Origin: a virus | DNA length: 64,000 bases | Reading direction: 5' to 3' (one strand) | Virus record (IMG/VR): IMGVR_UViG_3300036790_000366 | Span: 12,384-76,383 of that record | Part shown: piece after piece, positions 12,376-31,571 of the stretch | How the letters are laid out: each line of letters begins with the position of its first letter | How positions within the stretch are numbered: the stretch's first letter is position 1 | Program-made: the position numbers and the translations under genes | The notes under the pieces: generated by a model | The model's input: the letters and a program-made list of their open reading frames with translations, nothing else | Database searches by the model: none | What the model was told of the DNA's origin: nothing

Positions 12376-12864
12376 TCGACGCTCCCTGGCCTTCTCCGCC
12401 TCTTCCCCCATCCCGGACTTCTCCACGATGCGGTTCGTGATTCGGACGATCGCCCCGGCCGCACGCTGCTGGAGGACGTGGTAGTTCTGCACGTTGACCA
12501 CCGGCTGGACCATACCGGCAATCAGCAGTTCCCGGTTGATGACGTCCGAACGGGTGCCGGACATCTTCACCTGCTTGGTACCCGCCCTCCGGCGGACGTG
12601 GGTCAGCTCCTCCATCGACAGGCCCTTGAGCAGAACGTTGGCCTTCCACTCCTCCACGTAGAACTTCTCCTCCTCCGTGTCGTCCACGGCGGCGAGCTGG
12701 TCCATCGTGATGATGGGCGCGTCCTCGTGCGCGTGCGGGTCCTCCGGAGGAACTCCCGGGATCTCGTCTTCCGGCTCGTCATCTTCGTCGAAGTCGTACT
12801 CGTCGTCGATGTCGTCTTCCGGGAAGTCGATGTCCATCTCTTCTGGAGTGGCAAGCCTGTTCAT
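12358..12864 (-). CDS. Tail assembly chaperone (gpG equivalent) with acidic N-terminus
   Basis: 'EEKFYVEEWKANVLLKGLS...LLIAGMVQP'; between tail tube and tape measure. Confidence 0.75.
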   Translation of the reverse strand: MNRLATPEEMDIDFPEDDIDDEYDFDEDDEPEDEIPGVPPEDPHAHEDAPIITMDQLAAVDDTEEEKFYVEEWKANVLLKGLSMEELTHVRRRAGTKQVKMSGTRSDVINRELLIAGMVQPVVNVQNYHVLQQRAAGAIVRITNRIVEKSGMGEEAEKARERRFPRKR

Positions 12865-22877: not shown

Positions 22878-23358
22878 CCCGCTCCGCGTTCTTGAACCGG
22901 GCGAGAGCCAGTTCTATGGCCTTGTCCGTCCACGCGTTGGCCAGCAGGTTCCACCGCGTGGTGAGCAGCGACTTCCGGCGTACCTGCACTGCACTGGACC
23001 CGGGATTGTCGCGCGCGTACTGGATCATCACCCGGGACATCTCCGCGCTCAGCCCCAGGGTGAGGCCGCGGATTTTCTTGGCCTCCTCCTGAGAGAAAGT
23101 CAGAAGTACCTGGTCGTTCGTGCGCTTGGCCAGCAGATCCTGCTGCGCCTGCACGACCTGCTCCAGGATCTCCTTGCCCATGTTCCTGTCCTGGAGCAGA
23201 AACGTGGACCCCAGGAAATAGGCCACGTTCGCGTATACCTCGTAGAAGCCCAGCTGGATCGGGCCCATGTCCAGGCTCGGGAAGTTCCGGCAGCCGCGTG
23301 TCGTGGCCAGCCGCATCTTCGACTTCGCGTCGCCTTCTAGTTCCGGTGTCAGGTTCAC
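22828..23358 (-). CDS. Hypothetical helical protein
   Basis: GTG start overlaps the portal stop; normal codon usage. Confidence 0.55.
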   Translation of the reverse strand: MNLTPELEGDAKSKMRLATTRGCRNFPSLDMGPIQLGFYEVYANVAYFLGSTFLLQDRNMGKEILEQVVQAQQDLLAKRTNDQVLLTFSQEEAKKIRGLTLGLSAEMSRVMIQYARDNPGSSAVQVRRKSLLTTRWNLLANAWTDKAIELALARFKNAERGDSLAEPDPVGRSRPR

Positions 23359-25964
23359 TGTGCGATCACCCTCGGGAAGGGAGTGTTCGGGCTCCCGTTG
23401 ACGGGACTGACCTGGTTGTTCGCAGACCATCTGATTTCCGCCTTGGCCTGCGGGACGTGCGCGTTGCAGCAGCGGTGCACGATCGCGTCGCCCTGCATGA
23501 AACGCTGCTTCTCCGGCTTCTGGCAGAAGTCGCACTTCTTCATCGCATACTTCACCGGGACCTGATTGACCGGTGCGCTCTTGGAGACCTTCGCCTCCCA
23601 CCTGTCGCAGACGTCCTCGGAGTCGATCGCCCCCTTCACCAGGGAGCAGCCGTGCGGGCCGCGGAACATGACGCAGTTCCCGCACTTCCGGGAACCGATG
23701 GCCGGGCGGTATCGGACGTCCTGCTTGGACATCTTCAGCCGCTTGGCCAGGGCGGCACTCGAATCCGGGTCGTCGCTGGTGTACTGCTGCGCGTGCATCT
23801 CGTCCCAGGGACCCGTGTTCTGTTCCACGTGCGCCACGTAGGTGGGGGCCGGGTAGCCCAGCCCGTGATAGGCCATGTAGTGGTGGTGGCCGTCCACGAT
23901 CCTCAGCTTGTTGGAACCGGGAACCCGCACCGCGACGATCGGCTTGTGCTTGCCCTCCTTGATCTCCTTGGAGAAGTCCTTCACCTTCTCCGGTTCGTGG
24001 GAGGCCGCCCAGGACTTCTGGTCCGCGGTGTCGAACATCTCCGTGGGGACCATCTCCGGGCCGGTCCACACCGCGTCCTTCATCCACTTCATGGACGACT
24101 TCGGGAAGTCGGAGGACATCTGCTTCTTCACGCGCTTGCGCACGCCGACGGTGTCCTGCGGCGCGATGTGCTTGGCCACGGAGCGGTTCTTCAGTCCGCC
24201 GGTGGACTTCGCCGGGGCGTTCTGCGCCGCCCTCGTGGAGATGGTGGCCCGCCGTGCCGCCGGGGGCTGCTTCGACTTCACCGGACCGGTGGACTTCGTC
24301 GGAGCGCCCGGCTTGGAGCCCTTCTGCTTCCCGCCGGACCCGACCGTCTTCGCCGCCCGGTTCGTCGCGGTCGCCTGCGCCGCGCCCTTGGCCGGTGCGT
24401 TGGCGCCCGTGGAGGGGGCACCAGGGGCCGCACCCGCCGCCCCGGCCGGTGGCTTAAGGGTGACCGGGTCCATGCGCTCCACGATGCTTCCCTGGGGCGC
24501 GGGGACCACACCTTCCGCGTTCGCGTCCCTCGCGGTGCGCTGCGCCATGTCCTGCTCCGCGGAGGAACTGGCCAGCATCGTGTCCAGCTGCTGGTTGATG
24601 ATTTTCTCTTCGATGCCCTCGTTGACCGGGTTGCTCTCCCGGATCGGGAGCTTCGCGAACTCCCGCAGGTGGTTCTCCAGCTCGCTGTCCGGGAACAGCT
24701 GGGCACCGGCACCGGCCATGGCGGAGATCAGGGTGGCCAGGTCGGTGAGCGTCGGCTTCTGCACGATGTCGTGCCGGAGCTTCGGGTAGGGGCCGTTGTT
24801 GATTCCGTTCATCCGGAACAGCAGCGGGATGGCCCGGTTGTTTATCTCGTTCTCGATGTCGTTCAGGAAGGTTTCCAGGGCGGACTGGAACATGCTGGCC
24901 TTGGAGGTGGACAGCGCGTAGGAGCCGTTGTTCGTGGCGTCGTTCCCCAGCAGGAGGAAGTCGGCCAGAACCGTCATGGCGATGCGGGACTCGTACCGGC
25001 TGATGATTTCCTGCGTGGGGAACTGCCGGGAGCCGCCGGAGGTCAGGAGCTTGAACGTGTAGAGCTCGTGGCCCGCCGCGTCGTACGCCTGCGGCCAGAC
25101 GATGCCCTCCTGCTCGTCCCGCCGGACGTTCTGCACCAGCTTGACGACCGAGGCCACCATGGCCTGATCCGCCTCGCTGGCGTTCTCCCCCAGCATCTCC
25201 GCGGGAACCGTGGCGATCGGGATACCGGCCAGGTCGCGCTCTACGCCGATGGCCTCGATCTCTTCGATCCGCTTCAGGAAGTACCAGGAGCGGTAGGCCG
25301 TGCGCAGGACGGAGACGCCTTCCGGGTTGTCCTTCCAGGACTTCGTCCGGAAGTGCAGCGACTTCCCCAGCGGAAGATACCGCTCCGAGTAGTCGGGCGC
25401 GGGGCGCTGCCACATGCCGATCGTCTTGCCGGAGACCGGGGAGAAGTCCCACCTCCACCAGGATTCCTGAGCGATCGGCATGAACTTCTGCCAGCCGATC
25501 AGCCCGTCGTTCCACTGGGACGCGGTGGTGCCGAATTCGTCGATGACATCGTTGAAGCGCTGCTTGTAGCAGATCTCGAACCAGGACCACCCGTACGGCA
25601 GCATCGAGTTGACTTCGGAGATGAAGTCGGGCCAGCTCATCTCCATGTCGTCCCGGCACGAGGCGAGGAACTTGGCGCGCTCCTTGTCCACCTTCGATTC
25701 GCTGGCCGCCTCCTCGCGCCACAGCACCTTGCGCATGAACATGTCGATGGCGAACAAGACGGCGCCGATGACGGAGGAGTTCTGGGACATCTCCTGGTAG
25801 ACGCTGACGGCCTTGCGGCCCATCAGCTGCGGGAGAAGTTCCTCGTAGATGTAGCCGTACGATCGCTTCAGGCCGCTCTGACCGAACTGTACGGCACCGA
25901 GACCCATCCGCGGTTCGGCGCCGGTAAGCGTGGGTGTCTTCCTCACCTTCAACTTCTGCGCCAC
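23355..25964 (-). CDS. Portal protein (DUF935 / Mu gp29-like) with C-terminal ParB, HiPIP-like and Zn modules
   Basis: 'DNPEGVSVLRTAYRSWYF', 'IGVERDLAGIP', 'IAMTVLADFLLLG...GSYALS'; follows TerL. Confidence 0.9.
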   Translation of the reverse strand: MAQKLKVRKTPTLTGAEPRMGLGAVQFGQSGLKRSYGYIYEELLPQLMGRKAVSVYQEMSQNSSVIGAVLFAIDMFMRKVLWREEAASESKVDKERAKFLASCRDDMEMSWPDFISEVNSMLPYGWSWFEICYKQRFNDVIDEFGTTASQWNDGLIGWQKFMPIAQESWWRWDFSPVSGKTIGMWQRPAPDYSERYLPLGKSLHFRTKSWKDNPEGVSVLRTAYRSWYFLKRIEEIEAIGVERDLAGIPIATVPAEMLGENASEADQAMVASVVKLVQNVRRDEQEGIVWPQAYDAAGHELYTFKLLTSGGSRQFPTQEIISRYESRIAMTVLADFLLLGNDATNNGSYALSTSKASMFQSALETFLNDIENEINNRAIPLLFRMNGINNGPYPKLRHDIVQKPTLTDLATLISAMAGAGAQLFPDSELENHLREFAKLPIRESNPVNEGIEEKIINQQLDTMLASSSAEQDMAQRTARDANAEGVVPAPQGSIVERMDPVTLKPPAGAAGAAPGAPSTGANAPAKGAAQATATNRAAKTVGSGGKQKGSKPGAPTKSTGPVKSKQPPAARRATISTRAAQNAPAKSTGGLKNRSVAKHIAPQDTVGVRKRVKKQMSSDFPKSSMKWMKDAVWTGPEMVPTEMFDTADQKSWAASHEPEKVKDFSKEIKEGKHKPIVAVRVPGSNKLRIVDGHHHYMAYHGLGYPAPTYVAHVEQNTGPWDEMHAQQYTSDDPDSSAALAKRLKMSKQDVRYRPAIGSRKCGNCVMFRGPHGCSLVKGAIDSEDVCDRWEAKVSKSAPVNQVPVKYAMKKCDFCQKPEKQRFMQGDAIVHRCCNAHVPQAKAEIRWSANNQVSPVNGSPNTPFPRVIAQ

Positions 25965-25971
25965 TTTTTCC

Positions 25972-27387
25972 TCAAATCTTCCAGGGTGAAGTCTCACGGG
26001 TGATGGAGATCACGCTCGTGTTCCTGTTCGCGTTCCGCTTCCGTGCCGACCATGCCAGCGCGGTGGAGGCGATGGTGTCCGGCAGGTGGGAAGAGGTGCC
26101 GACGTTGTACAGGTCGTCCGCGGTGACCAGACGGAAGTCGTCGTACATCGAGATGATACGCGGGGACAGGAAGTTGTGGCTTTCCACCCCGTGCACGAAC
26201 TCGGTGATCATGTCTGTGCGGATCTTGCCGTTCATGGAGATCTCGGTCAGGTTGTCCCGCACGGTTCCCGGGGGATAGACGATGTAGTCGCTGACCACCG
26301 CACCGACACCGGTCGCGTCGGAGACCACGTCGCCGCCGTACATGGCCCAGCGCTTGTTCAACCGACCGATCAGAACATCCCATGGCCTCTTGTTTATCTT
26401 CTCGAACGCCGCCATCTTCCACTGCCCCACCGTGACGTCCCAGGTGGTGATGACCGTGAAGTCCCGCGACTTCGCCCAGTCCACCCCGGTCACGTAGTCG
26501 CGGTCCGGCCGTGGCTTCATGAACTGGTAGAACATCCCGTCCTCGCCCTTGACGATGTCCCACCGCGGATCGAACATCTTCTCCACGGCTTCTTCGTCCA
26601 GCGCACGGCCTTCGAAGTTCGGTTCAAGGATGTCGTATTCGTTCCGCCACATCTGGGCAGGGATTTCGAGGCGCTTGCGCTCGATCTCCTCGGGGTCCAG
26701 CCATCCGTCCACCGGGTTCGAGGTTTCCTTGTAGCACCACGAGTAGACAGGGAAACCCTTCTCCGCGAACTCTCTCTTGTAGTAGGTGACCGGACCGTCC
26801 GGGTAGGTGTGCGTGCTGGAGAAGACGGTGGAAGTCTCGATCCTCTCCCCGGTGAGCATCGACTTCCCGCGCATGGGCTGGCCGAGGGCGGCTTGGACGA
26901 TGCTCAGGTCCGCCTCGTCGATCTCGTCGATCCGCAGACGGGAAGGGTGGGGGCCACGCACGGAGGTCTGCGAGGCCATGAGGGTTCGGGCCTTTCCTCC
27001 GTTCGTGAGAACCGTGTCGAACTTCGTCGGAGACTTCTCCAGCAGATACTTCGGTGCCCGCGGTGCGTGCCACAGGGCGTTCATGGATTCCTGCACGCGC
27101 ATGGCCTGCGCGCCGGAGCCGCCGAGGATCGAGACGAACGCACCGAGGTAGGTGAGCTCCATCATGCCCAGCAGCGACATGGTGAAGGTCTTGCCGGAGA
27201 AGCCACGAGAGCCGAGCCACATCGCCTGAGGACTTCTCGCGAAGAACGCGTTGCAGAAAGCCTCGAACGGTGTGTCGTGGTTCAGACACACCTTAGTCCG
27301 TGGAATCTTCACACCCCACGTGGCGAGCACGGCGTACCAGAGTTCCGCGTCCGTCTGCGGTGGCCTCTGGATGACGAAGTCGGTCAC
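25972..27387 (-). CDS. terL: Terminase large subunit
   Basis: Walker A 'GSRGFSGKT', Walker B 'LRIDE', 'SST' coupling motif, nuclease 'GVDWAKSRD', 'DATGVG', 'HLPD'. Confidence 0.93.
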   Translation of the reverse strand: MTDFVIQRPPQTDAELWYAVLATWGVKIPRTKVCLNHDTPFEAFCNAFFARSPQAMWLGSRGFSGKTFTMSLLGMMELTYLGAFVSILGGSGAQAMRVQESMNALWHAPRAPKYLLEKSPTKFDTVLTNGGKARTLMASQTSVRGPHPSRLRIDEIDEADLSIVQAALGQPMRGKSMLTGERIETSTVFSSTHTYPDGPVTYYKREFAEKGFPVYSWCYKETSNPVDGWLDPEEIERKRLEIPAQMWRNEYDILEPNFEGRALDEEAVEKMFDPRWDIVKGEDGMFYQFMKPRPDRDYVTGVDWAKSRDFTVITTWDVTVGQWKMAAFEKINKRPWDVLIGRLNKRWAMYGGDVVSDATGVGAVVSDYIVYPPGTVRDNLTEISMNGKIRTDMITEFVHGVESHNFLSPRIISMYDDFRLVTADDLYNVGTSSHLPDTIASTALAWSARKRNANRNTSVISITRETSPWKI

Positions 27388-27390
27388 TTC

Positions 27391-27765
27391 CTACCGCCGC
27401 AGACCGCCGATGGACCCCAGGTAGTCAGCGGTCAGCATGACGTTGTACGCGCCGACACTGGTATTCGCACCGACTTGGGCCACAACATCCGTGGATCCGT
27501 CCAGAGTCACAATGAACTTGTAAGGGCCGTAACCCGCGGACACGGCTGCGATCGGAACAGGCAGCGTGATACTTCCGATCACGACGGAGATGTTTCCCGC
27601 GTCGTTCGCCCCGACACCGGAACCTACGCTCGCATAGACGGCTAGTTCGTACTGACCAGCCTGCGTGACCTGGTTCGTATGGCTCAGAGTCGCAATGGCA
27701 GTTCCCGTGACGGTTCCGCCAGCAGCGTTCCCCGCCTTGAAAATCGTGGAAACTCCGACAGTCAT
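27391..27765 (-). CDS. Hypothetical beta-rich protein, possibly virion-associated
   Basis: 124 aa Gly/Val/Thr-rich; strong AAGGAG RBS. Confidence 0.6.
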   Translation of the reverse strand: MTVGVSTIFKAGNAAGGTVTGTAIATLSHTNQVTQAGQYELAVYASVGSGVGANDAGNISVVIGSITLPVPIAAVSAGYGPYKFIVTLDGSTDVVAQVGANTSVGAYNVMLTADYLGSIGGLRR

Positions 27766-27784
27766 GTCTCTCCTTTCCAAGGTT

Positions 27785-27856
27785 CGGGGGCGGACGCAGG
27801 TCACCCCGCAGGGTGCCTTGCACCCGGGCGATTATCTGGGCTGACGTCCGCCCCCG
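27785..27856 (-). promoter_or_regulatory. Structured leader hairpin ahead of the packaging/structural operon
   Basis: Perfect 12-bp inverted repeat with a nested hairpin; TATCAT -10-like hexamer just upstream. Confidence 0.5.
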
Positions 27857-27903: not shown

Positions 27904-28299
27904 CTAGTTCGGCGTCTTGTTCGTCTTCTGCTTGGTCAGCTTCTCCCGCGGCGCCTTCAGTTTCGGCATCTTCGGCTGCTTCGGAGTCGGAACCCGAGTG
28001 GCAACCGTGCTGGTCGTACCCTTCTTCGCACTACCAGAACTGCCGGAAGAAGACTTCTTGCCGAGGTTCGGCAGGCCTAGATTCGGCAGGCCTAGATTCG
28101 GAAAGTTCCGGTTCCGGAGAAGGTTCCCCTTGCCTTTACCAGAGTCGCTCTTCTTCTTGTCTTCCGGCTTCGTCTCCCCCGGCTTCTTTTCCCCCTCGCC
28201 GACGCGCTTGGGTTCCTTGGCGCCTTCCTTGTCCTCCCGCACGCGGCTGCCGGAAGCCGTCAGACCGCCGTTGCCGCCCTTCGAGCCCTGCCCCATCAC
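27904..28299 (-). CDS. Very basic Lys/Gly-rich disordered protein with PNLG(L) x3
   Basis: 131 aa starting (M)MGQGSKGGNGG; 15-bp tandem repeat at 28067-28101. Confidence 0.65.
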   Translation of the reverse strand: MMGQGSKGGNGGLTASGSRVREDKEGAKEPKRVGEGEKKPGETKPEDKKKSDSGKGKGNLLRNRNFPNLGLPNLGLPNLGKKSSSGSSGSAKKGTTSTVATRVPTPKQPKMPKLKAPREKLTKQKTNKTPN

Positions 28300-28421
28300 T
28301 GACCCCCGCTCTTCTTCTGCACGGGCTTGGGAACGCGCTTCACGGCCGTCTGCGCCTTGCGCGCCCGCTTCCCCTTGGTGCCAGCCGCAGCGCGGCGGGC
28401 CGATCGAGCGTTAGTCCCCAT
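28296..28421 (-). CDS. Small basic peptide, 41 aa (not in ORF track)
   Basis: MGTNARSARRAAAGTKGKRARKAQTAVKRVPKPVQKKSGGQ; overlaps both neighbours at start and stop. Confidence 0.55.
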   Translation of the reverse strand: MGTNARSARRAAAGTKGKRARKAQTAVKRVPKPVQKKSGGQ

Positions 28422-29724
28422 CCTCTTCGAATCCTCTCGTCCGCTTCTTGGAGCGAGTCTGCCGCTGCCCCTTCACCGTGGTCCCGGAGTCCAGAAGTTC
28501 TCTGCGCCGGTTGGTCCGAGTCTCCACCCGCACGACTTCCGCGTCCAGACCGGCACGCTTCACCACTTCGTCCGCGTCGGTGTGCCCGTAGACGAGGATC
28601 TGGCCGAAACCTATTTTCTCTTCCGCCTTCTTCAGCAACCGGGCGGTGGTGCGGATCCTGTCCTGGTCCCCGCGGATCGTCTGGATCTGCGTGGCCACCA
28701 GCGGTGCGCCCTCCGGAATGCATTCCAGGCACAGTTCCAGGGCCTCGTCGCTGCCGCCGTACTGGATGTCCGGGATGACCAGGAACCCGGCTTCCTGCCA
28801 GTACCTCGCCACGTACGCGCTGCGGTAGGCGGACCAGATCCACAGAGCAGGGGGCCAGCCCTGGTTCACAGAATAGTTCGGCATGATGCAGGTGGTGATC
28901 CCGCAGTTCATTATCTTCTTGGTGTTCTCCGCGGGGTCGGTGTACAGACCTTCGAAGTGGAAGTCCTCCGTGTACAGGCTGAGGATGGCGCGCTCGAACG
29001 GAATCCCGCGGTTGCCCGTGTGCCACTGGGAAACCCACCACTGATCCTTGTCGGGGACCCGGTCGCCGTCGATCTCGACACCGCCCCACATGTCCAGCTT
29101 CTCCGGCAGCCGGTCCGGAATCCGGTCGAGGCGAAGTTCCGGGATGCCGTAGTTCTTGTCCGACTCGAACAGCACATAGCGGCTCAGGTCTTCGACGCCG
29201 TCCAGGTCGGACGGAGCTTCTTCGATGGAGTCGATGGAGTCGATCGGGTTCCTGTTCATCTCCACCAGGAGTTTGCCCAGGACGTCATCGCTGTACGTGG
29301 TGCCGATCAGATGGCCGGTCTGCTTCTTCTGGTCCTCCAGAAGCTGGGCGAGAAGACCCGGGTCGTAGGTGGCGTCGTCGGTGGAACCGTTGTCGGCCAG
29401 CACGATGCGGCGGGCGTGGTCGTCGTCCACGTCCACCCATGCCACTTTTATCTTCTTCCAGCCCAGGGACTTGGCCGCCTTGGCGGTGTGGTTACCGGCC
29501 AGTATCTCGTTCTCCCGGCCGGTCTTCGTTCCGCGGTTCACCACGATCGGCTTGAACTGGCTGTTGGACCGCAGGCTCTCGGCGACCTTTTCCAGGTTCC
29601 CCACCCGCGGGTTCTGGTGGTAGTACTTCAGCCCGCGGAGCTGCACCTCTTCGTAGTCCAGTTCCAGCGGGCCGGTGTCGCAGGGCGATTCAGACACGCT
29701 CTTCTTCAACTTTTTTACGGCCAC
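28411..29724 (-). CDS. ParB-N / DUF4417 fusion protein
   Basis: ParB 'NPRVGN...PIVVN...ILAGNHT.KAA...LADN'; DUF4417 'DFHFEGL...PNYSV...W..YRS...ARYWQ..G..VIP'. Confidence 0.75.
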   Translation of the reverse strand: MAVKKLKKSVSESPCDTGPLELDYEEVQLRGLKYYHQNPRVGNLEKVAESLRSNSQFKPIVVNRGTKTGRENEILAGNHTAKAAKSLGWKKIKVAWVDVDDDHARRIVLADNGSTDDATYDPGLLAQLLEDQKKQTGHLIGTTYSDDVLGKLLVEMNRNPIDSIDSIEEAPSDLDGVEDLSRYVLFESDKNYGIPELRLDRIPDRLPEKLDMWGGVEIDGDRVPDKDQWWVSQWHTGNRGIPFERAILSLYTEDFHFEGLYTDPAENTKKIMNCGITTCIMPNYSVNQGWPPALWIWSAYRSAYVARYWQEAGFLVIPDIQYGGSDEALELCLECIPEGAPLVATQIQTIRGDQDRIRTTARLLKKAEEKIGFGQILVYGHTDADEVVKRAGLDAEVVRVETRTNRRRELLDSGTTVKGQRQTRSKKRTRGFEEDGD

Positions 29725-30208
29725 GGATTCTCCTCGACAACAGTCGCTCGTACATGACGCCGTACCGGTTCAGGCATACGGCGTCGATCAGGTCTTGGTC
29801 CCCCTCTGCCAGATGATAGGCCTCGGGGCAGTTCTTCTCCACCCACTCCGCAATTTCCGGCTTCTTGGCGTTCCCCTTCCCGACGACCTGCTTCTTCCAG
29901 GTTCCGACGTTCACCAGTTTCAACGGCACGGCAAGGTTCTGCGCGGCAGCCATCACCGCACCGCCCACCTGGGCCTGCACGATGGTGGAGTGCACGCCGC
30001 CGACACCGACCAGTGGGGCTTCCAGGTAGACCGCCACCGGTCCTTCAGCGAACTTCAGAAACGAAAAAGCCTCCCTGTAGGCCGCACCCGTCGCCGAGTA
30101 CAACCCACCAGGGAGGTCTATTACATGAAGTTCTGAGTAGAAGCCGTTTCCGGAACAGCACAGTGCGAGCTTCTTGGAGCTGGGGTCGATGCCGATGACT
30201 GATCTCAT
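29690..30208 (-). CDS. ruvC: RuvC-like Holliday junction resolvase
   Basis: 'IGIDP', 'YLEAP', 'TWKKQVVGKGNAKK', 'DLIDAVC'. Confidence 0.85.
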   Translation of the reverse strand: MRSVIGIDPSSKKLALCCSGNGFYSELHVIDLPGGLYSATGAAYREAFSFLKFAEGPVAVYLEAPLVGVGGVHSTIVQAQVGGAVMAAAQNLAVPLKLVNVGTWKKQVVGKGNAKKPEIAEWVEKNCPEAYHLAEGDQDLIDAVCLNRYGVMYERLLSRRIRGRKKVEEERV

Positions 30209-30220
30209 CCGACCAGGGTA

Positions 30221-31102
30221 TCAGCGTTTCATCCACTGAGCTCCATACTTATTTTGCAGCATGGCTTCTTGGACCTGGTCCGTTATGGACTTGGTGTCGA
30301 TGTGAATTTGTACAGTAGGGGTGCTTGTCGCTGGGGTGCCAAGGGGAATGAAGGTCGTGGCTGCGATGGGAGTGCCGGGCGTACTTTCCACCTCCGGACT
30401 TTTCAGCGTCATGCTGAAGTTGGTTATATCTACAGAGCGCTCCTCCTTCGGATTGAGCCGCGCCTTCTTCTTGCAGCCGGGAGTCAGGCACTTCCAGTAC
30501 TCGTCGTCGTGCAGCTTGTCCGTCACGTGCGCCATCTGGCCGCCGTGGACCGGGCACTCCAGCACGAACGGCTTGGTGTATTGGGCCACCTTCGGTTCCT
30601 CCTTCTCCAGATCCACGTAACCGAGGCTCTTCTTCTGCTCGTCAATCTCCTTCTTGCAATCGGACAGCTTCGTACCCCGTATCCCCATGTTCAGAGACAC
30701 CTTCGAGGCGCCGTAGTCGTCGTGTCTGATGAAGAGCTCGCCTATCTCAGTACCGTTGACGTAACTCGTGCTGACTGTCAGGTCGAACGGCTTGGCGTAT
30801 TCGCACAGCTCGGCACGCATGTCAGGAGTCAGACTGCTGAGCCCTTCCGGGTGCAGGCGCAGCATCTCCTTCTTCATGTCCGCGACAGCTGCCTTCAGGA
30901 CTTCGCCCGGCTGCCTGGCGTCATCGACCAGTTCTCTGCCGAGCGTCCTCGACACGGAGTCTCCGTTGGTCGGATGCTCCAGGAGCAGCTGATAGCTCAT
31001 AATAGCTTCGCTCGTGATTATGTTCAGCCGGTACGGCTTCGCGAAGGCGATGAGTTCGTTCTGCCGCCGCATGTTACTTGTGTACTCGCTTGTGCTCACC
31101 AC
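30221..31102 (-). CDS. Hypothetical protein with C-terminal Zn ribbon
   Basis: CPVH...C...C motif; start chosen at the GTG after an RBS to avoid a long overlap. Confidence 0.55.
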   Translation of the reverse strand: MVSTSEYTSNMRRQNELIAFAKPYRLNIITSEAIMSYQLLLEHPTNGDSVSRTLGRELVDDARQPGEVLKAAVADMKKEMLRLHPEGLSSLTPDMRAELCEYAKPFDLTVSTSYVNGTEIGELFIRHDDYGASKVSLNMGIRGTKLSDCKKEIDEQKKSLGYVDLEKEEPKVAQYTKPFVLECPVHGGQMAHVTDKLHDDEYWKCLTPGCKKKARLNPKEERSVDITNFSMTLKSPEVESTPGTPIAATTFIPLGTPATSTPTVQIHIDTKSITDQVQEAMLQNKYGAQWMKR

Positions 31103-31154
31103 GTCCTTCACCTCTTTCCTGATGGCGTCCTTTATCTGCCTGTCGATCCGCTCC

Positions 31155-31571
31155 TCAGCGCGCAGATTCTCGTCCGAGTCTTGCTTGCTCGACTTCGACA
31201 GTGCGTGCTGTAAGCCGTCGCGAACCGAGCTGAGCAGCTGCTCTCGCCAGTTCCCGGAAGGTACGTAGCTCTCCGGTACGGAACTTGGCATAGTCCGATC
31301 CTCTTTTGACCGTCCCATCCGCCTCTCCTCTCTGGATGAGCGCCGTCATCTCGCTGGCACGTGCGTAGTACTGGTCCGCGACTTCTTGGAGGGCATGCGT
31401 ACCGGTGACGGGAGATATCAGCCTACCCATGAGCACATCCATGTACCCGTCCAGTTCTCTACGGAGTTCGGCCACGGGCCCCAGCCCGAAGTCCACCGGA
31501 ACGGCGCGGAGGACTGCGTTCGTGTAGCCGCGCTCCTGGCTCTTGTGCTGCATCGGTGGGAGCTTCTTCAT
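31155..31571 (-). CDS. Helical protein, possible recombination mediator
   Basis: 138 aa all-helical, coupled to the exonuclease gene; function is inferred. Confidence 0.5.
   Translation of the reverse strand: MKKLPPMQHKSQERGYTNAVLRAVPVDFGLGPVAELRRELDGYMDVLMGRLISPVTGTHALQEVADQYYARASEMTALIQRGEADGTVKRGSDYAKFRTGELRTFRELARAAAQLGSRRLTARTVEVEQARLGRESAR

Follow-up and report, generated by a model that had tools for sequence, protein, structure and literature searches.

Two described systems come closest to the locus considered here. In the Dpd 7-deazaguanine system of Salmonella Montevideo, DpdA, a protein of the tRNA-guanine transglycosylase (TGT) fold, exchanges guanine in DNA only together with the ParB-superfamily ATPase DpdB (PMC10164549). 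In type IV cyclic oligonucleotide-based antiphage signaling systems (CBASS), Cap10, which likewise has the TGT fold, binds the N-terminus of the cGAS/DncV-like nucleotidyltransferase (CD-NTase), which starts M(G/S)G(G/S)GG; this N-terminus loses its Met, a deazaguanine is added on Gly2 by the QueC-like Cap9, and the modified end appears poised for transfer to a target that is unknown (bioRxiv 10.1101/2025.04.06.647259). In addition, fusions of ParB to the domain DUF4417 have been listed as enriched in phages, with no function given for DUF4417 and not among the nucleoside triphosphate (NTP) binders (preprint 10.1101/2025.10.10.680097). Here, we analyzed a stretch of viral DNA of 64,000 nucleotides (hereafter the window), which covers positions 12,384 to 76,383 of the IMG/VR record IMGVR_UViG_3300036790_000366; the whole record is linear and 76,383 bp long, and soil metagenome DNA was the source of every sequencing run containing the stretch. 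At 27904–29724 of the window, the minus strand encodes a ParB–DUF4417 fusion protein followed by two small basic proteins that begin with Met-Gly. We propose that these genes may form a conserved late, packaging-adjacent module of an enzyme and its tagged partners that would act on DNA at packaging, a reading which we regard as evenly poised between right and wrong. DUF4417 is a widespread phage domain without an assigned function, and the literature search on DUF4417, PF14386 and MGGRG revealed no paper describing a pairing of DUF4417 with a glycine tag; in the papers that mention the domain, it figures only among phage-enriched ParB fusions, with no function given, or as a mere annotation.

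The enzyme gene (28411..29724, minus strand) encodes 437 amino acids (aa). A first-pass annotation, made by a model from the letters alone, had read the product as a fusion of ParB-N and DUF4417, and this was borne out together with its coordinates: both Pfam models scored above their cut-offs, DUF4417 (PF14386) with 69.2 bits against 28.9 (E 4e-19, residues 246-384) and ParB_N with 27.8 bits against 26.3 (E 2.7e-6, residues 42-112). The protein also matched phrog_940 in PHROGs at 3e-54. We found 377 homologues of it, many of them on phage-sized contigs of 65-77 kb, and the DUF4417 family comprised 1,180 cluster representatives at 50% identity in the search made here. An AlphaFold model of the enzyme was built on 32 homologues (mean predicted local distance difference test score, pLDDT, 79.7). 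Its N-terminal half, a ParB/CTPase-fold domain at residues ~22-157 (29254..29661, minus strand), resembled the structures of ParB, Noc, KorB and PadC with Z scores of 10-12.2, the best being 7bnr (Z 12.2, root-mean-square deviation 2.2 over 92 residues) and 5k5d (Z 12.1). The DUF4417 domain at residues ~200-418 (28471..29127, minus strand) was modeled as a TIM barrel and compared with 48,161 chains in an unbiased search. TGT-family enzymes were the top structural matches, a possibility that the first-pass annotation had raised: archaeosine TGT (ArcTGT) 1iq8 (Z 10.8, root-mean-square deviation 3.6, 207 residues aligned), QTRT2 6fv5 (Z 10.0), bacterial TGT 3unt (Z 9.2) and the DNA preQ0 insertase DpdA 7ui4 (Z 9.0, 198 residues aligned). 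The alignment to TGT-family chains covered ~205 of the ~215 residues of the domain, and generic TIM barrels reached Z values of at most 8.9. A second pass on the Foldseek list gave dozens of TGT entries with Z of 9.1-9.6. Thus, on the modeled structure, the margin of TGT enzymes over generic barrels appeared modest but consistent.

A wide alignment of this phage, four metagenomic relatives, GMA6, Cantare and Javan241 revealed the invariant barrel residues D254, F257, P282, Y300, G313, P318, P337 and Y379, and D254 was the sole acidic residue that is invariant across the wide family. In relatives, inteins sit two to three residues before D254. Loci L014 (1158-2120) and L015, which encode one and the same protein, carry a 320-residue insert exactly before T-[ED]-D-F-H-F; its first residue is Cys, its end is Gly-Asn followed by Thr, and it gave weak but concordant matches to intein_Nterm and Intein_splicing as well as a match at 8.5e-8 to the intein part of Tes. 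The sequences of three further proteins, the cluster representatives P0172, P0264 and P0305 (722-842 aa), were interrupted at or near the same site. Inteins usually sit in functionally critical motifs, and their homing beside the invariant T-[ED]-D-F-H-F thus suggests that D254 belongs to an active site. It should be noted that, by eye, the stretch T-E-D-F-H-F followed by DPA.N....LG....MPN seems to bear a likeness to T-D-S-G-G-F and DPE.S....LG.D..M.FD of TGT.

Directly behind the enzyme gene, two small open reading frames (ORFs) follow on the same strand. The first (28296..28421) encodes a 41-aa basic protein with the Met-Gly start MGTNARSARR; the coupling to the enzyme gene that had been claimed for it is seen as an 11-nt overlap with the enzyme stop. 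The second encodes a Lys/Gly-rich protein that begins MGQGSKGGNGG (tag MGQGSKGGNGGL) and contains PNLG three times. This ORF had been listed from a GTG at 28299 and put at 131 aa in the first-pass annotation; the protein and its repeats are real, but the likelier start is the ATG at 28296; its A doubles as the final base of the TGA that ends the 41-aa ORF (TGATG), and the product then has 130 aa (27904..28296). Lys and Arg make up 32% of the 41-aa protein and 24% of the 130-aa protein. A Gly directly after the start codon was found in only three of the 66 crude gene calls in the window. Orthologues of both small genes could be identified at the equivalent place in four related loci, L001, L008, L003 and L004, whose enzymes are 84%, 79%, 70% and 73% identical to that of the window, respectively. 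Across the window and these four loci, M1, G2, N4, A5 and R6 of the 41-aa family are invariant, and the 130-aa family keeps its first 23 and last ~12 residues around a hypervariable middle rich in Gly, Lys and Arg. All 14 further homologues of the 130-aa protein, drawn from a collection of 5.8 billion proteins, start with MG[QN][GQ]SRGG and end with KLTKQR.NK.PN or a one-residue variant of it, and all 19 members (five aligned and 14 from the database) start with MG..S.GG and end with KLTKQ..N..PN. In the comparison with L001, eight of the changes in the first 13 codons of the 41-aa gene were synonymous and one was not, and for the first 24 codons of the 130-aa gene the corresponding counts were 11 and two; in both genes, the substitutions fell mostly at third codon positions. 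This pattern indicates that both ORFs are real genes under purifying selection. No match to the small proteins was found in Pfam or NCBIfam, and PHROGs gave a single weak one (phrog_13828, E 0.003). A complex prediction with DUF4417 residues 185-420 and the first 45 residues of the 130-aa protein (score 0.02, mark 0.32) spoke neither for nor against an interaction. A eukaryote-style N-myristoylation signal was considered for the tags and dropped, as they do not have the usual Ser/Thr at position 6; to our knowledge, bacteria have no N-myristoylation enzyme. In L004, the enzyme gene is separated from the short tagged gene by an extra 154-aa ORF (L004:7148-7612), and a third tagged protein with an MGNQSR start (MGNQSRAAKGRGL) is encoded at L004:8156-8443.

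We then examined the gene context of the enzyme in ~20 distinct loci (36 locus ids, several of which are duplicates or ParB-only matches). The conserved linkage of DUF4417 with Gly-initiating proteins that had been predicted was observed both in relatives and in cultured phages, and the pairing of DUF4417 with a glycine tag spans phages of Actinomycetota, Streptococcus and Bacteroides. In Streptococcus phage Javan241 (MK448714.1), two ORFs starting with MGGRGA[RK] (L031:4061-4414 and L031:4427-4645) fill an unannotated gap after the ParB–DUF4417 gene, which is annotated in GenBank as a DNA modification methylase; the first of them overlaps the enzyme stop by 11 nt, just as in the window. Starts of the form MGG(R)G behind DUF4417 genes, which the first-pass annotation had mentioned, do therefore exist. 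In Bacteroides phage Versailles, the neighbour of the enzyme starts with MGRNSSGTRGGL, which resembles the tag of the 130-aa protein, and carries an HExxH motif. A different arrangement was found in the distant enzyme orthologues L005, L011, L024, L013, L014 and L025 (48-55% identity), the last of which comes from a Streptomyces levis assembly, where its contig measures 71.5 kb. No Met-Gly protein could be found in any of these six loci. Instead, each encodes one basic protein of ~100 aa, in which a neutral or acidic leader of 14-25 residues with an aromatic end leads into G-[SA]-G and then into a body rich in Arg and Gly, and each also encodes, just before TerL, a Prok-JAB protein of 117-128 aa with an HxH...S..D motif (E 1.7e-9 to 4.6e-5 for the Prok-JAB matches in relatives). 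The same combination of leader and JAB gene occurs in Gordonia phage GMA6 and in UBSmoodge, where the leader ends in ...VE before GAG, and in Brevibacterium phage Cantare, where it ends in ...LFS before GAGG; in Streptococcus phage IPP52, a 65-residue leader precedes GGGRGA and a JAMM motif lies within the same protein. On the other hand, there was no Prok-JAB match in the whole record of this phage, whose small proteins start directly with Met-Gly, and L001, L008, L003, L004, Javan241 and Versailles likewise have a direct Met-Gly start and no JAB in the DNA examined for each locus. Thus, ten loci with a leader and JAB (the six distant orthologues, GMA6, UBSmoodge, Cantare and IPP52) stand against seven direct Met-Gly loci in which no JAB was seen. 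Such complementarity suggests that a free N-terminal glycine is required, and a glycine of this kind beside DUF4417 appears to be what selection maintains; the JAB protease most likely cleaves the leader just before it. In loci of the leader/JAB type, an extra Cys-rich protein is often encoded between the enzyme and JAB genes (L005:7224-7418, L014:2664-2810, L029:6601-7503 and L032:5029-5934), either as a small zinc-ribbon-like ORF or as a ~300-aa protein with a weak DUF3109 match.

On the basis of these results, the favoured mechanism of the module may be outlined as follows. A ParB-type, DNA-engaging head would be fused to a DUF4417 barrel with the fold of base-exchanging transglycosylases (TGT and DpdA), and its partners would be small, disordered polycations, defined above all by a free glycine at the N-terminus and the short conserved tag behind it. 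In this phage, Met-Gly is translated and the host methionine aminopeptidase would expose the glycine, whereas in relatives G-[SAG]-G is preceded by a neutral or acidic leader, most likely stripped by the co-encoded JAB metalloprotease. In our proposal, the glycine tag would be both bound and acted on by the DUF4417 barrel, much as Cap10 holds its partner by the modified glycine at the N-terminus. Targeting of the reaction to phage DNA would fall to the ParB head, the role that DpdB has for DpdA, and the polycations would end up loaded on the DNA packaged by the neighbouring terminase, or possibly attached to it. The position of the module, between a RuvC-like resolvase gene and the TerL and portal genes and with overlapping reading frames, speaks in favour of this mechanism. 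A covalent version, in which transglycosylase-type chemistry of ParB–DUF4417 would link the N-terminal glycine to the genome during packaging, either directly or via a host-made base, seems to us a bold and improbable extension. In Fpg/Nei and T4 endonuclease V, the attack on C1' of the sugar is made by N-terminal amines. If such joining did occur, the injected DNA would carry protein caps or decorations shielding it from host nucleases.

Several observations weigh against the favoured mechanism. At the sequence level, the Pfam TGT model (PF01702) matched nowhere in the whole record, even at E values of up to 1, the profile of the enzyme family retrieved only ParB chains and no TGT from the PDB, and hhalign of the family against E. 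coli TGT gave an insignificant probability of 0.45%; the DUF4417 protein is thus, as modeled, TGT-like in shape and not a demonstrable member of the TGT family. The stretch GHTDAD, which could have been a TGT-style nucleophile site, is specific to the clade and not kept outside it. In the ParB head, the P-motif GxxR reads G77-N78-H79-T80, with threonine in place of the arginine. At least 90% of the 32 aligned homologues share T80, and the arginine is retained in L008, Javan241 and L017; because of the threonine, canonical nucleotide binding and NTP-driven clamping are doubtful in the clade of this phage. No match to the QueC-like ligase model was found at E up to 1 in the record, and the chemistry of Cap9/Cap10 can therefore not simply be copied; likewise, no model of a thymidylate-synthase-like gene (base hydroxymethylase) matched in the record. 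A Pfam search of 20 replication-region proteins recovered only RecA, Pol III alpha, DnaB, primase, AAA_5 and a zinc finger. Among the loci compared, Gordonia phage DalanDe encodes the enzyme, but no obvious tag protein and no JAB were seen in its vicinity. In addition, the 17 loci are related to one another and represent perhaps four to six independent lineages, and the adjacency of the genes could reflect late-operon synteny alone.

On the minus strand, the late block runs in the order resolvase, enzyme, 41-aa ORF, 130-aa ORF, 137-aa ORF, TerL and portal. The RuvC-like Holliday-junction resolvase (29690..30208, minus strand; phrog_159, E 3.7e-20) is encoded directly upstream of the enzyme gene, and a resolvase lies at the equivalent place in L001, L008, L004, L025, GMA6, UBSmoodge and DalanDe and at most two genes upstream of the enzyme gene in Cantare and Versailles. 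The first-pass annotation had placed the cassette just upstream of the terL operon; it is indeed adjacent to the packaging genes, but a 137-aa gene (27391..27804, minus strand) intervenes. The product of this gene, a conserved protein of ~124-137 aa, is kept in L001, L008, L003 and L004, occupies the position of the JAB protease gene in relatives, and had no match in Pfam or PHROGs; a TNF/C1q/BclA-like jelly roll from the Atlas structure search is a low-confidence lead only. The large terminase subunit TerL (25972..27387, minus strand), whose gene adjoins the portal gene, matched the solved terminase nuclease domains of 5m1q (E 1.4e-5) and T4 gp17 (E 0.005). A scan of the cassette for promoters and terminators found nothing useful. 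Two further Met-Gly frames were noticed in this region. A 365-aa protein two genes upstream (30221-31318, minus strand) begins with MGRSKEDR, with MGRSEKDR at the equivalent place in L001 and L008, has a Cys-rich zinc-ribbon-like stretch and could be a candidate third tagged protein; a 51-aa out-of-frame ORF inside the ParB coding region (29285-29440, minus strand), which starts with MGGRGRRPRPP, is most likely a by-product of GC-rich DNA and not a gene.

The portal (23355..25997, minus strand) is of the Mu type (Portal_Mu, E 1.6e-21; phrog_113, E 1e-70) and has a C-terminal extension of ~370 aa, on which a second ParB domain had been claimed. This domain (portal residues ~643-725; 23823..24071, minus strand) is not detected by Pfam. 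We modeled portal residues 621-880 by AlphaFold on 22 homologues (pLDDT ~82-93 over model residues 21-100), and model residues ~23-105 matched only chains of the ParB/sulfiredoxin fold in Foldseek, namely PadC 6ryk, KorB, sulfiredoxin (Srx), SerK and ParB (E 5e-3 to 6e-2, probability ~1.0). Weak sequence support came from phrog_1033 (E 0.0045) and from hhalign against the enzyme family (E 0.011), and the Joint Genome Institute (JGI) name for one portal homologue is ParB-like nuclease domain protein. The model thus indicates that the second ParB-fold domain is real. In the neighbourhood comparison, the portals of the relatives L011 and L024 were 547 aa long, with no room for the extension, and the domain is therefore not a general part of the system. 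Docking of the enzyme to the portal through ParB–ParB contacts, as suggested before, is pure conjecture and cannot be general. Other features of the portals include conserved Cys clusters after the ParB/Srx-fold domain of the extension (23355-24137, minus strand) and, in several homologous portals (P0141, P0147-P0149 and P0152), a NUDIX (MutT-like) domain instead.

Other explanations of the locus have to be weighed against a module acting on DNA through a glycine tag. The genes might be independent neighbours, with ParB–DUF4417 a DpdA/DpdB-like base modifier using a small molecule and the basic proteins histone-like or internal core proteins that share the late operon. The TGT/DpdA-like fold joined to ParB would suit such an enzyme, phage ParB fusions often being DNA methyltransferases (phrog_498; preprint 10.1101/2025.10.10.680097), and the composition of the small proteins is that of polycations. 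However, this account explains neither the requirement for a glycine N-terminus, nor the appearance of the JAB protease exactly when a leader is present, nor the same start in unrelated DUF4417-adjacent proteins of Streptococcus and Bacteroides phages, and the QueC-like and base-hydroxymethylase genes were not found in the record; we consider it rather unlikely. It might also be that the glycine tag is an address label; DUF4417 would then be no catalyst but a receptor or chaperone, bringing tagged cargo to the procapsid or portal so that it is co-injected, and DNA would undergo no chemistry at all. That the tagged proteins vary in other phages, as with the HExxH protein of Versailles, would fit a label, as would the ParB-fold domain of the portal itself and the two conserved termini of the 130-aa protein, which suggest two binding partners. 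An invariant aspartate with inteins homing beside it is suggestive of catalysis instead, a free alpha-amine would be an odd need for simple binding, and the portal extension is missing in L011 and L024, which makes a pure label improbable in our view.

The remaining two alternatives fare worse. ParB–DUF4417 and the basic proteins could replace the small terminase and recognize the packaging site, given that ParB folds bind specific DNA sites and that no recognizable small terminase lies between resolvase and TerL in this phage. But the small proteins are of low complexity and without a terminase-like oligomer core, and the ORF that immediately precedes TerL in Javan241, IPP52 and Versailles, annotated as hypothetical, looks by eye like a small terminase. 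As several relatives thus have a separate ORF of this kind, we rejected this possibility, which appears very improbable. Finally, the two small ORFs are short, of low complexity and without a Pfam family, as chance frames in GC-rich DNA would be; their position, frame and termini are nevertheless conserved in four loci and 14 database proteins, most substitutions are synonymous, and start and stop codons overlap, so that chance is scarcely credible.

The family of loci offers a natural experiment, leader plus JAB versus direct Met-Gly, that points to a need for a free N-terminal glycine. It also suggests a testable link between the insertion of bases into DNA by DpdA/DpdB and the way in which type IV CBASS tags the N-terminus of a protein with a nucleobase, and would place such a system on the phage side, beside the packaging motor. 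If proteins were attached to or loaded on the DNA, this would be a new phage means of protecting or condensing the genome and a possible source of tools for site-directed protein–DNA conjugation.

With regard to known systems, the basic core-protein precursors pVII and pre-Mu of adenovirus are trimmed by adenain. They share with the leader/JAB relatives the small size, the polycationic and DNA-associated character and the removable N-terminal piece, whereas the protease of the relatives is of the JAMM/JAB type and this phage has neither leader nor protease; here, moreover, the new N-terminal glycine is conserved and a TGT-like enzyme is always adjacent. ParB-fused DNA methyltransferases and other fusions of the ParB/CTPase fold likewise place a ParB head on a nucleic-acid enzyme, and the preprint that lists them (10.1101/2025.10.10.680097) does not mention tagged neighbours. 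DpdA/DpdB combines a TGT-fold barrel with a ParB-superfamily NTPase on double-stranded DNA, and DpdA is among the top structural matches of DUF4417. In this phage, however, both folds lie in one chain that shows no likeness to TGT or DpdA in sequence, the record yielded no gene of the preQ0 pathway (the QueC model being without a match), the P-motif arginine is missing, and the setting is a packaging block with glycine-tagged proteins rather than a restriction-modification island. Cap9/Cap10 provides the parallel of a TGT-fold protein with a partner relying on a glycine-rich N-terminus exposed by removal of Met. The phage differs from it in having no QueC-like Cap9 and no CD-NTase, in its 41-aa and 130-aa polycation partners, in its tag (MG[QTN]..[RK] instead of M(G/S)G(G/S)GG), and in being phage-encoded, terminase-adjacent and fused to ParB instead of part of a host defence operon. 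Thus, a TGT-fold protein, a partner with an N-terminal glycine and ParB-assisted action on DNA each appear to have precedents, and what would be new is the phage-encoded form, with polycations as partners and without a QueC-like ligase.

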